This document shows, one piece after another, positions 8,963 to 11,189 of a stretch of 39,180 nucleotides of DNA. The stretch lies in the sequence record ON528717; one strand, 5' to 3'. Under the pieces are notes generated by a model. The model was not told the origin of the DNA. It did not search any database and worked only from the letters and a program-made list of their open reading frames with translations. Position numbers and translations under genes: made by a program. Positions within the stretch are counted from its first letter, which is position 1. Every line of letters starts with the position of its first letter. Origin of the DNA: Shigella phage ESh3.

Positions 8963-9417
8963 TGGCTCGTGTACAGTTTAAACAACGTGAATCTACTGAC
9001 GCAATCTTTGTTCACTGCTCGGCTACTAAGCCAAGTCAGAATGTAGGAGTTCGCGAGATTCGGCAGTGGCATAAAGAGCAGGGTTGGCTTGATGTAGGGT
9101 ATCACTTTATCATCAAGAGAGATGGTACTGTGGAGGAAGGCCGAGATGAGATGGCTGTAGGCTCTCACGTTAAGGGACACAACCACAACTCTATTGGCGT
9201 CTGCCTTGTAGGTGGTATCGACGATAAAGGTAAGTTTGACGCTAACTTTACGCCAGCCCAAATGCAATCCCTTCGCTCACTGCTTGTCACACTGCTGGCT
9301 AAGTACGAAGGTGCTGTGCTTCGGGCGCATCATGATGTGGCACCTAAGGCTTGCCCATCGTTCGACCTTAAGCGTTGGTGGGAGAAGAACGAACTGGTCA
9401 CTTCTGACCGTGGATAA
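8962..9417 (+). CDS. 3.5: gene 3.5 lysozyme (N-acetylmuramoyl-L-alanine amidase; inhibitor of phage RNAP)
   Basis: 151 aa MARVQFKQRESTDAIFVHCSATKPSQNVGVREIRQWHKEQGWLDVGYHFII... Confidence 0.95.
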   Translation: MARVQFKQRESTDAIFVHCSATKPSQNVGVREIRQWHKEQGWLDVGYHFIIKRDGTVEEGRDEMAVGSHVKGHNHNSIGVCLVGGIDDKGKFDANFTPAQMQSLRSLLVTLLAKYEGAVLRAHHDVAPKACPSFDLKRWWEKNELVTSDRG

Positions 9418-9418
9418 T

Positions 9419-9441
9419 TAATTAAACTCACTAAAGGGAGA
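9419..9441 (+). promoter_or_regulatory. phage RNAP class II promoter (phi3.8-type variant), here directly upstream of gene 4
   Basis: TAATTAAACTCACTAAAGGGAGA; differs from consensus at -13, -12, -11 and -2. Confidence 0.7.
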
Positions 9442-9488
9442 CCACAACGGTTTCCCTTTGTTCGCAATGTTGATTAAGGAATAACCAT

Positions 9489-11189
9489 ATGGAATTAGAA
9501 CAAGATAGTATTTTCCTGTATCATGCTCCTTGCGAGAACTGTGGGTCTTCTGATGGTAACTCCGTGTATTCTGACGGGCACCAATTTTGCTTTGTATGTG
9601 AGCACAGGGTTCCAGCCTCAGAAGAACGCAAACAGGAGCTATCATCAAGAAGACGTATAGTCGGTGGAGGTAAACCAATGTCATACAACGTGTGGAACTT
9701 CGGGGAATCCAATGGACGTTACTCTGCGTTAACTGCGCGAGGAATCTCTAAGGAAACCTGTCAGAAGGCTGGATACTGGATTGCCAAAGTAGACGGTGTT
9801 ATGTACCAAGTGGCTGACTATCGTGACCAGAATGGAAACATTGTGAGTCAGAAGGTTCGAGACAAGGATAAGAACTTTAAGACCACTGGTAGCCACAAGA
9901 GTGACGCCTTGTTCGGGAAGCACTTGTGGAATGGTGGTAAGAAGATTGTCGTCACAGAAGGTGAAATCGACATGCTTACCGTAATGGAACTTCAAGACTG
10001 TAAGTATCCTGTAGTGTCGTTGGGTCACGGTGCCTCTGCCGCTAAGAAGACATGCGCTGCCAACTACGAATACTTTGACCAGTTCGAACAGATTATCTTA
10101 ATGTTTGACATGGACGAAGCAGGACGCAAAGCAGTTGAAGAGGCCGCACAGGTTCTACCTGCTGGTAAGGTACGGGTGGCAGTTCTTCCGTGTAAGGACG
10201 CCAACGAGTGTCACCTCAATGGTCACGACCGTGAAATCATGGAGCAAGTCTGGAACGCTGGACCGTGGATTCCTGATGGTGTGGTATCTGCTCTTTCGTT
10301 ACGTGAACGAATCCGTGAGCACCTATCGTCTGAGGAATCAGTAGGTCTACTTTTCAGTGGCTGTAGTGGTATCAACGATAAGACCTTAGGTGCCCGTGGT
10401 GGTGAAGTCATCATGGTCACTTCCGGTTCCGGTATGGGTAAGTCAACGTTCGTCCGTCAACAAGCTCTCCAATGGGGCAAAGCGATGGGCAAGAAAGTAG
10501 GCTTAGCGATGCTTGAGGAGTCCGTTGAAGAGACCGCTGAGGACCTTATAGGTCTACACAACCGTGTCCGACTGAGACAATCCGACTCACTAAAGAGAGA
10601 GATTGTTGAGAACGGTAAGTTCGACCAATGGTTCGATGAACTGTTCGGTAACGATGCGTTCCATCTATATGACTCATTTGCCGAGGCTGAGACGGACAGG
10701 CTACTCGCTAAGCTGGCCTACATGCGCTCAGGCTTGGGCTGTGACGTAATCATTCTTGACCACATCTCAATCGTCGTGTCCGCTTCCGGTGAATCCGATG
10801 AGCGTAAGATGATTGACAACCTTATGACCAAGCTCAAAGGGTTCGCTAAGTCAACTGGGGTGGTGCTGGTCGTAATCTGTCACCTTAAGAACCCAGACAA
10901 AGGTAAAGCACATGAGGAAGGTCGCCCTGTTTCTATTACTGACCTACGTGGTTCTGGCGCACTTCGCCAACTATCTGATACTATTATTGCCCTTGAGCGT
11001 AATCAGCAGGGCGATATGCCTAACCTTGTCCTCGTTCGTATTCTCAAGTGCCGCTTTACTGGCGATACTGGTATTGCTGGCTACATGGAATACAACAAGG
11101 AAACAGGATGGCTTGAACCTTCAAGTTACTCAGAGGAAGAAGAGTCCCACTCAGAGTCAACAGATTGGTCCAACGACACTGACTTCTGA
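9489..11189 (+). CDS. 4: gene 4A primase-helicase
   Basis: 566 aa; N-terminal zinc ribbon (CENCGSSDG...CFVCEH), Walker A GSGMGKST, acidic C-terminus ...DWSNDTDF. Confidence 0.97.
9678..11189 (+). CDS. 4: gene 4B helicase (internal in-frame start at Met64 of 4A)
   Basis: ATG at codon 64 ([12 protein letters not shown]) with upstream GGAGG; known internal initiation in T7. Confidence 0.7.
10578..10600 (+). promoter_or_regulatory. phage RNAP promoter phi4c (class II) inside gene 4
   Basis: CAATCCGACTCACTAAAGAGAGA. Confidence 0.6.

Follow-up and report, generated by a model that had tools for sequence, protein, structure and literature searches.

A phi3.8-type promoter and R3.8-like hairpin leading into gene 4 of Shigella phage ESh3, at a junction probably interrupted by gene 3.8 in T7

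In Shigella phage ESh3, the 71-bp spacer between the lysozyme gene and gene 4 is very probably an unoccupied control module made up of a weak orthologue of the T7 promoter phi3.8 and an R3.8 hairpin, into which gene 3.8 was inserted in the T7/phiA1122 lineage. We analyzed the whole 39,180-nucleotide stretch of record ON528717, referred to here as the window. Three things were observed directly and underlie this reading: what each part is by sequence, the presence of a T7-type polymerase, and which genomes have compact or occupied junctions. That gene 3.8 was gained by T7 rather than lost from ESh3 is inferred from this distribution and from the mobility of HNH genes, not from a rooted phylogeny. 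The features of the junction are as follows.

8962..9417, + strand: gene 3.5 homologue, lysozyme / N-acetylmuramoyl-L-alanine amidase, 151 aa; TAA stop at 9415-9417
9419..9441, + strand: phi3.8-type class II T7-RNAP promoter (-17 to +6), TAATTAAACTCACTAAAGGGAGA; inferred start G9436
9433..9459, + strand: hairpin with an 11-bp stem, AAAGGGAGACC-ACAAC-GGUUUCCCUUU; overlaps the start site; probable R3.8 homologue
9460..9488, + strand: conserved leader and ribosome-binding region, GTTCGCAATGTTGATTAAGGAATAACCAT; AAGGA at 9476-9480
9467..9665, + strand: mosaic patch relative to T7, seen as a gap in the blastn match
9470..9503, + strand: putative unoccupied insertion site, 34 nt comprising the Shine-Dalgarno sequence and gene 4 codons 1-5, placed by alignments with T7
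9489..11189, + strand: gene 4A, primase-helicase, 566 aa; ORF with its ATG at 9489

The promoter, its polymerase and the R3.8-like hairpin

The gene 3.5 homologue is collinear with T7 gene 3.5 (10706-11161), and its relatives are annotated as endolysin or amidase. The ORF list and the sequence place 71 nt (9418-9488) between the lysozyme stop and the gene 4 ATG, which confirms the coordinates given in an earlier sequence-only reading (stop at 9417, start at 9489) as well as its layout, in which a promoter fires directly toward gene 4 with no gene 3.8 between. The spacer contains no ORF of its own, and an 88-aa antisense ORF at 9418-9684 was regarded as spurious. Across 9250-9650 we detected neither a sigma-70 promoter nor a convincing terminator, and Rfam gave no family, its only match being at chance level.

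The sequence TAATTAAACTCACTAAAGGGAGA matches the T7 consensus TAATACGACTCACTATAGGGAGA at 19 of 23 positions, and the mismatches fall at -13, -12, -11 and -2, exactly as had been claimed. Comparison with T7 phi3.8 (TAATTGAACTCACTAAAGGGAGA, +1 at 11180) revealed identity at 22 of 23 positions, the sole difference being a G to A change at -12; all four of the deviations previously listed are thus present, but only -12A is new, as T7 phi3.8 itself already has -13T, -11A and -2A. The CTC at -9 to -7, the C at -5 and the GGG start at +1 are intact, and the segment from -10 to +6 is perfectly kept. As a consensus search allowing at most three mismatches misses a promoter with four, a weight matrix was derived from the T7 promoters other than phi3.8 (n = 16) and used for scanning instead. 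The promoter scored 26.0 bits on this matrix, and the window contains 16 sites at or above that score, all on the + strand and all at T7 promoter positions. No site reached 26.0 bits in first-order Markov resamples (n = 100), so the match lies far beyond chance. All 17 T7 promoters have positional counterparts in the window, and the -17 base lies 2 nt past the gene 3.5 stop in the window, in T7 and in 12 other loci. Its position and its identity to T7 phi3.8 bear out the earlier description of a phi3.8-type variant and identify the promoter, on sequence grounds, as the positional orthologue of T7 phi3.8, of class II, with initiation predicted at G9436.

The polymerase that would use this promoter is encoded by gene 1 (1484-4135) and is identical to T7 RNAP at 873 of 883 residues (98.9%). 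Its specificity loop (residues 739-770, including N748, R756 and Q758) and its AT-rich recognition loop (residues 90-105) are both identical to those of T7. T7 phi3.8 is functional and drives lysozyme expression in pLysS (PMC8601162), and -12 is the least constrained position among high-throughput T7 promoter variants (PMC5937735 S1 Table). As the specificity loop is identical, T7 phi3.8 works and -12 is so little constrained, the strength of the variant under a polymerase nearly identical to that of T7, which the sequence-only reading had left as an open question, is mostly no longer in doubt.

In published measurements of promoter variants it is -11A that costs activity, and -12 is tolerant (PMC5937735). 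The wild-type base at -12 is retained in 70.9% of high-activity variants versus 61.3% of the input, while retention is 73% at -13, about the input bias, and 93% at -11 (PMC5937735). Against a wild-type activity of 142, -12A gave 116 and 90 (64-82%), -13T/-12G gave 118 and -2A gave 138, while variants carrying -11A gave 1.8-26, or 1-18% (PMC5937735); the -13T/-12A/-11A/-2A combination itself is absent from these data, the variants nearest to it have extra mutations and are each a single barcoded measurement, and no exact phi3.8-like 19-mers were found in the Komura et al. data set. Because -12 is the least constrained position and -11A is costly, we predict a strength like that of T7 phi3.8, that is, a weak class II promoter.

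A conserved hairpin at 9433-9459, which overlaps the start site and had been omitted from the sequence-only reading, spans -3 to +24 relative to the promoter start. The annotated R3.8 hairpins of T3 Luria (-4 to +23) and phiYeO3-12 (-4 to +24) occupy the same place, and in T7 R3.8 is cleaved a short way downstream of the phi3.8 start (PMC6938266). Folded one at a time, 11 of 11 diverse sequences form the hairpin, and the stem differences in IME15, Rambo and pEp09 compensate one another. A MAFFT/RNAalifold consensus returned a covariation term of +0.69 with 2 of 12 pairs changed on both sides, but indels misregister two of the sequences; support for the hairpin was therefore taken from the single-sequence folds, the alignment-based fold being uninformative through misplaced indels. 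Rfam holds no model for R3.8. We infer that the hairpin is a homologue of the RNase III site R3.8 and a putative cleavage site.

Taken together, the spacer is very probably the unoccupied version of the middle-gene control module that is standard in T7-group phages. Its promoter, of class II and weak, with its +1 at 9436, would serve the phage's own T7-type RNA polymerase, its initiation region would form the 5' arm of the conserved R3.8-homologue hairpin, and the hairpin would be followed by a conserved leader and Shine-Dalgarno sequence leading straight into gene 4A. Transcripts from phi3.8, covering gene 4 and the genes after it, would supplement read-through from the class II promoters upstream, with the hairpin at the extreme 5' end of phi3.8-initiated RNA and serving as an internal processing site on read-through RNA.

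Alternatively, the promoter may be vestigial, with gene 4 expressed by read-through only and selection keeping the hairpin for RNase III processing or as a 5' stabiliser. Every measured -11A variant is low, a T7 model sets phi3.8 at 0.01 of phi10, T7 read coverage falls after R3.8 with no rise (PMC6938266), and the hairpin is kept with compensating changes, all of which fit such a reading. However, the -10 to +6 segment is perfectly preserved and T7 phi3.8 does drive lysozyme in pLysS. Furthermore, the upstream half of the promoter tracks each phage's polymerase type, being T3-type (AATTAACAC...) in T3, phiYeO3-12 and ChM-G5 and the canonical T7 sequence (TAATACGAC...) in IME15, a switch expected only under selection for polymerase recognition. 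This match between the upstream half and the phage's own polymerase argues that the site is maintained as a promoter, and we consider a vestigial promoter unlikely.

Gene 3.8 and the junction upstream of gene 4

In T7, gene 3.8 (11225-11590) lies between phi3.8 and gene 4A (11565). The T7 junction is thus not compact: alignment across gene 3.5 to gene 4 places gene 3.8 there and finds it absent from the window, as had been supposed, and tblastn of gp3.8 against the whole window returned no homologue (best E = 0.89). At 95% identity or more, gp3.8 was found in 74 records; all of the 60 listed are T7 or Y. pestis phages, and within this list its carriers are T7 and the Yersinia pestis phiA1122 group alone. 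The idea that phiA1122 itself lacks gene 3.8 proved wrong, as an identical gp3.8 is present. The 161-nt junction is matched collinearly by about 40 GenBank records in which the 53-nt leader runs straight into gene 4, and the leader is exactly 53 nt long in 9 of 14 scorable IMG/VR loci. Curated records of T3, phiYeO3-12 and T3 Luria likewise annotate promoter phi3.8, a stem-loop or RNase III site R3.8 and gene 4A. Comparison of these sequences indicates that the compact junction is the common state across the subfamily and that T7 and the phiA1122 group hold the inserted HNH gene. The earlier description of an "empty slot", which implied loss in this phage, is therefore misplaced in emphasis, since the compact state is common and T7/phiA1122 is the insert-bearing lineage.

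Other inserts occur at the same locus: one IMG/VR locus (L017) has a 162-aa relative of gp3.8, ESh6 has an ORF upstream of the promoter, and two further loci retain a truncated 3.8 remnant (L014) and a frameshifted remnant of the 162-aa type (L008), with leaders of 307 and 466 nt, respectively, that are approximate because choosing the farthest in-frame ATG goes past the true start of gene 4. At the level of sequence, these cases show what appears to be a hotspot of repeated HNH insertion and decay. The window does contain an HNH_3 gene at 4732-5145, a position unrelated to the gene 3.8 locus. The mosaic pattern breaks sharply at the insert, and HNH genes have entered this locus several times independently; these are the only hints of a possible homing site.

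The Shine-Dalgarno sequence AAGGA (9476-9480) lies 8 nt ahead of the gene 4 ATG, and the leader CCCTTTGTTCGC...TTGATTAAGGA is nearly invariant in T3, phiYeO3-12, IME15, Rambo and ChM-G5. T7 shares this sequence up to ...GTTCGCA(T/A)TG, then diverges into GAGGTCAAATAATG, the start of 3.8, and similarity resumes at GATAGT in gene 4 codons 6-7, such that in T7 the 34 nt found at 9470-9503 have given way to gene 3.8 plus a new start for gene 4A. The blastn match to T7 stops at 9466 and restarts at 9666, from where gene 4 is 95.7% identical at the nucleotide level, and the intervening mosaic patch (9467-9665) has 66% identity versus 96% downstream. This patch takes in the Shine-Dalgarno sequence and the zinc-finger domain that is specific to gene 4A (aa 1-59); over residues 1-60, gene 4A has 78% identity to T3 and 53% to T7. 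The internal gene 4B start is M64 (9678), and the 4B Shine-Dalgarno sequence and start, GGAGGTAAACCAATG, are conserved. Strict co-inheritance of the divergent gene 4 5' patch with the HNH insert was considered and is weakened by Yersinia phage Rambo, whose junction is compact although its zinc-finger domain is T7-like, so the insert and the gene 4 5' type do not always go together.

We propose that the T7/phiA1122 lineage acquired gene 3.8, a free-standing gene for an HNH homing endonuclease, at the point where the leader meets gene 4. Under secondary loss, the ancestor would instead have had gene 3.8 like T7, and a deletion would have removed it so that the promoter now adjoins gene 4. Homing-endonuclease genes do decay and disappear, the truncated and frameshifted remnants are instances of such decay, and elsewhere the genome shares about 92% identity with T7. 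Such a deletion, however, must recreate exactly the 53-nt leader, the TTGATTAAGGA Shine-Dalgarno region and the MELEQDS... start, which are common to about 40 genomes and present in diverged form in T3, phiYeO3-12, IME15 and Sarma103, while T7 is without that Shine-Dalgarno sequence and start, both replaced by 3.8, and the window bears no trace of 3.8 sequence; we regard loss as improbable. Least probable by our estimate is that the -12 G to A change is an adaptive retuning of promoter strength or lysozyme sensitivity that adjusts primase-helicase dosage without 3.8, for while -12A is seen only in the window and ESh1, with -12G in 15 of 15 IMG/VR loci, nine compact-junction genomes retain -12G, which uncouples -12A from compactness, -12A alone keeps most of the wild-type activity at this least constrained position (PMC5937735), and it is simpler to suppose that a single neutral change arose in one lineage.

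Implications for annotation and homing

The compact phi3.8-R3.8-gene 4 layout was described accurately but is ordinary, so the analysis offers little new biology and chiefly a corrected reference frame. For annotators, T7, the textbook genome, is atypical at the gene 3.5-gene 4 junction, and the absence of 3.8 from a relative does not equate to a deletion. The locus also provides a natural example of occupied, unoccupied and decayed homing-endonuclease sites beside an essential replication gene, and the natural -12A allele of phi3.8 adds a data point on T7 promoter tolerance. More speculatively, and we hold this to be rather doubtful, the junction at about 9460-9510 could be the natural site that gp3.8 or its 162-aa relative recognises and cleaves, and ESh3, which is without 3.8, 2.8 and 7.7, could be more sensitive to defences. 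If so, in co-infection with T7 the ESh3 junction would be cut and would take on the allele with 3.8, the adjacent gene 4 zinc-finger segment being converted along with it, and the phage would be more exposed to defences that sense DNA breaks, for example GAPS4, whose action gp3.8 reportedly blunts (bioRxiv 10.1101/2025.09.07.674715).

Comparison with known systems

The closest counterpart is T7 phi3.8, which occupies the same place past the gene 3.5 stop, shares 22 of 23 bases including -13T, -11A and -2A, and has the same transcript start, GGGAGACCACA(A/G)CGGTTTCCCTTTGTTCGCA. It differs in having -12G where ESh3 has A, in one hairpin-loop base and in the gene that follows, which is 3.8 in T7 and 4A in ESh3. 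With T7 gene 3.8 itself (Pfam HNH_3, homing-endonuclease-like), ESh3 has only the locus in common, and there it is unoccupied. The phi3.8-R3.8-4A module of T3 and phiYeO3-12 (X17255, AJ318471, AJ251805) resembles that of ESh3 in placing the promoter start inside the 5' arm of the hairpin, in its leader of about 50 nt with the TTGATTAAGGA Shine-Dalgarno region and in having gene 4A directly after; in contrast to ESh3, these promoters carry the T3-type specificity bases AATTAACAC..., and a small gene 3.7 lies between gene 3.5 and the promoter. Finally, the T7 phi10 leader hairpin, familiar as the pET vector 5' UTR, has the same first 21 transcribed bases, GGGAGACCACAACGGTTTCCC, as ESh3, whereas phi10 is a strong class III promoter with a consensus upstream half, and its sequence past the hairpin differs from that of ESh3.

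The gene 3.5-gene 4 junction and its promoter

The window covers the whole genome, in circularly permuted form, of a T7-like phage (Teseptimavirus); its identity is 96.3% to Shigella phage ESh1 and, over 25 kb, ~92% to T7. Its first base corresponds to ~T7 nt 1691, and the T7 ends are crossed near 37182-37303; as the right and left ends of T7 both map there and overlap, the window is a circular permutation of a linear genome in which the terminal repeat has been reduced to a single copy. Nucleotide similarity to T7 is absent from the 3' part of the tail-fibre gene (~32300-33714), suggesting a different receptor-binding domain. 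The features relevant to the junction are:

1484-4135, gene 1, RNA polymerase, 883 aa
8962-9417, lysozyme/amidase ORF (gene 3.5), 151 aa, TAA stop at 9415-9417
9419-9441, + strand, promoter 23-mer TAATTAAACTCACTAAAGGGAGA, +1 = G9436
9433-9459, hairpin, 11-bp stem including three A-U pairs from -3
9489, start of the primase-helicase ORF (gene 4), 566 aa

The lysozyme stop and the gene 4 start are separated by 71 nt, and the promoter between them differs from the T7 consensus at -13, -12, -11 and -2. The sequence-only reading had described these ORF boundaries, the spacer, the promoter and its four deviations, all of which are correct in the sequence. No sigma-70 promoter, convincing terminator or Rfam family was found in 9250-9650. 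An 88-aa antisense ORF (9418-9684, - strand), which overlaps both the spacer and the beginning of gene 4, is probably spurious.

A weight matrix derived from the other 16 T7 promoters, with T7 phi3.8 deliberately excluded, gave the promoter at 9419-9441 a score of 26.0 bits. Sixteen sites in the window reached this score, on the + strand only, and none did in 100 first-order Markov resamples of the window, while a scan with the full matrix returned 17 sites corresponding one-to-one with the 17 annotated T7 promoters. T7 phi3.8 (TAATTGAACTCACTAAAGGGAGA) itself already carries -13T, -11A and -2A, and the window promoter differs from it at a single position, -12 G to A. ESh1, whose junction is 100% identical to that of the window, also has -12A; 15 of 15 IMG/VR loci matching the promoter pattern have -12G.

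Polymerase specificity and promoter strength

The window RNA polymerase differs from T7 RNAP by 10 substitutions, none of which falls in the specificity loop (739-770) or the AT-rich recognition loop. It retains N748, R756 and Q758, which in T7 RNAP contact -10/-11, -9 and -8, respectively (summarised in PMC5937735), and the window contains six exact T7 consensus promoters. With its unchanged recognition loops and these consensus promoters, it is thus a T7-specificity polymerase. The strength of the variant promoter under the resident polymerase had been posed as an open question; with recognition loops identical to those of T7, that question shrinks to the effect of -12 G to A in T7 phi3.8.

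T7 phi3.8 is functional and feeds lysozyme expression in pLysS (PMC8601162), and models of T7 gene expression assign it, as they do other class II promoters, 0.01 of the strength of phi10 (PMC6938266). Among the 244 high-activity variants in the barcoded library of T7 promoters from Komura et al. (PMC5937735), the wild-type base was retained in 70.9% at -12 (library input 61.3%), 73% at -13 (67.3%), 83.6% at -2 (72.3%) and 93% at -11 (69.9%). The RNA/DNA ratios, which are single barcoded measurements from a library lacking the window's four-change combination, were 141.6 for the wild-type promoter, 137.7 for -2A, 118.1 for -13T/-12G, 116.1 and 90.3 for -12A, and 26.1, 10.4, 9.3, 9.0, 3.2 and 1.8 for six variants with -11A, each with other changes (PMC5937735). 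These library data agree that the costly deviation is -11A and that -12 is nearly neutral. By analogy, the window promoter would be expected to act like T7 phi3.8, as a weak but active class II promoter, and the -12 G to A substitution shared with ESh1, the sole new detail of the junction, is probably neutral.

HNH genes at the junction and the adjoining gene 4 patch

In T7, the phi3.8 start site (11180) lies 19 nt past the gene 3.5 stop and is followed by gene 3.8 (11225-11590), the 3' end of which overlaps the gene 4A start (11565). The two phages are collinear through the promoter and hairpin to '...CCCTTTGTTCGCA(A/T)TG', beyond which T7 has the 3.8 ribosome-binding site and start ('GAGGTCAAATAATG') and the window has those of gene 4 ('TTGATTAAGGAATAACCATATG'); similarity returns, diverged, at 'GATAGT' (gene 4 codons 6-7). 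No gp3.8 homologue was found in the window by tblastn (best E = 0.89). The sequence-only reading was thus right that in T7 this promoter precedes a gene 3.8 that has no counterpart here, and the proposed alignment from gene 3.5 to gene 4 confirmed that T7 lacks the compact junction.

gp3.8 matches Pfam HNH_3 (E = 3e-15), and other HNH genes occur at the same location in relatives. One locus (L017, 7307-7795) encodes a 162-aa HNH_3 protein, 49% identical to gp3.8, in the gene 3.8 slot, its gene entering straight after the hairpin, and ESh6 (L003, 928-1362) encodes a 144-aa HNH_3 protein upstream of the promoter, after the gene 3.5 stop. Two further loci hold a shortened 3.8 remnant without an ORF (L014) and a frameshifted remnant of the L017-type gene (L008). 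The gene 3.5/gene 4 intergenic region is therefore an HNH gene hotspot, with three different intact HNH_3 ORFs and two decayed remnants. Intact, decayed and empty junctions with at least three different HNH entry points are the pattern expected of free-standing homing-endonuclease genes, and this supports T7 carrying an insertion rather than the window phage having suffered a deletion, a direction drawn from the distribution of states rather than from a rooted tree. A precise deletion of gene 3.8 in the window phage is unlikely, because the Shine-Dalgarno (SD) sequence and first gene 4 codons that T3, IME15, Sarma103 and others have in common with the window are no longer present in T7.

The adjoining 5' end of gene 4 also differs between the two phages. 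In blastn, similarity to T7 ends at 9466 and returns at 9666; identity to T7 is 66% in the first 186 nt of gene 4 but 96% in nt 201-600, and outside the patch gene 4 as a whole matches T7 at ~96% of nucleotides. Residues 1-60 of gene 4A, the gene 4A-specific zinc-finger region, retain their four cysteines and share 78% identity with T3, 75% with IME15 and 53% with T7. The 5' type of the window is found in all close relatives with the compact junction (89-100%), and T7 and phiA1122 have the other type. This patch (9467-9665; compare the relatives' loci L023, L024 and L025) is thus an exchangeable mosaic module bordering the HNH site. It is not strictly tied to the HNH insert, as Yersinia phage Rambo has a compact junction yet a T7-like zinc-finger domain (78% to T7).

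Four accessory T7 genes, 2.8, 3.8, 5.3 and 7.7, are missing from the window at their T7 positions, with clean junctions for 2.8 (8510/8531), 5.3 (14352/14354) and 7.7 (17500/17506). The T7 record annotates 2.8, 3.8 and 7.7 as endonucleases and 5.3 only as a hypothetical protein. T7 deleted for 2.8, 3.8 and 7.7 is reportedly viable but outcompeted by the wild type in cells with the GAPS4 defence system, which gp3.8 alone is reported to blunt (2025 preprint, bioRxiv 10.1101/2025.09.07.674715). Elsewhere, the window has a 137-aa ORF (4732-5145, + strand) with matches to Pfam HNH_3 (1.5e-8) and, weakly, zf-His_Me_endon, ~39% identical to T7 gp2.8 and gp7.7. Lying between a phi1.3-type promoter (+1 at 4721) and the ligase gene (5142-6224), an interval of just ~50 bp in T7, it resembles a free-standing homing-endonuclease gene, in a position unused by T7.

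Transcript leader and the compact junction in relatives

The hairpin at the transcript start, GGGAGACC-ACAAC-GGUUUCCC, folds with -13.4 kcal/mol (centroid), and the T7 phi10 leader has the same first 21 nt. An equivalent hairpin folds in all 11 sequences examined, with compensating changes in the outer stem (AGACC/GGUUU in the window, AUGACC/GGUUGU in IME15, UGGACU/GGUCUG in Rambo and AGGAC/GUCCU in pEp09); an alignment-based conservation test, in which MAFFT misplaced indels, gave a weak signal. The window's own phi10 counterpart (20161-20185) has an exact consensus promoter but a leader hairpin with one additional G (CCACAACGGGTTTCCC versus CCACAACGGTTTCCC in T7). On read-through RNA, the MFE fold adds an 8-bp lower stem (9418-9425 paired with 9470-9477) that borders the hairpin at 9433-9459 and contacts the gene 4 SD; in T7, a similar stem could arise from different downstream sequence.

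The T7 phi3.8 start is a short distance upstream of the R3.8 cleavage site, beyond which read coverage drops (PMC6938266). Following established T7 biology, the phage RNAP would initiate at G9436 at a low rate, and gene 4 and the genes downstream would be carried both by phi3.8 transcripts and by more abundant read-through from the phi1.1A-phi2.5 counterparts. The hairpin may be processed by host RNase III on read-through RNA and would form the 5' end of phi3.8-initiated RNA, with gene 4A presumably translated from the AAGGA SD at 9476-9480.

A 161-nt junction query (9380-9540) was matched collinearly over its full length by ~40 GenBank records, including ESh1, N30, C5, JB01, vB_YpYeO9, CICC 80001, KKE5P, C2, SYGE1, PVN09, 3A_8767, Pila, JacobBurckhardt, EG1, HZ2R8, AV103, IME390, PHB20, WW2, Yanou, pO111 and, as more distant matches, IME15 and Aeromonas phages; 50 records covered ≥80% of the query at a single location. 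Among 15 IMG/VR contigs with the promoter, the leader into gene 4 is exactly 53 nt long in nine, five are occupied and one is truncated. gp3.8 was found at ≥95% identity in 74 records, and the 60 matches listed are all T7 isolates or laboratory derivatives, or Yersinia pestis phages (phiA1122, Y, R, YpP-Y, YpP-R and YpsP-G).

The compact junction is thus the majority state among T7 relatives and a known, curated arrangement in T3-group phages, so that the facts of the sequence-only reading stand while its framing of the junction as an anomaly and an open question does not. T3 (X17255, AJ318471) and phiYeO3-12 (AJ251805) carry curated annotations of 'promoter phi3.8' and 'stem_loop / RNase III recognition site R3.8' with gene 4A directly downstream, and have a small gene 3.7 upstream of the promoter. 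With no 3.8 ORF in between, the phi3.8 transcript of the window has gene 4A as its first cistron, as in T3 and phiYeO3-12.
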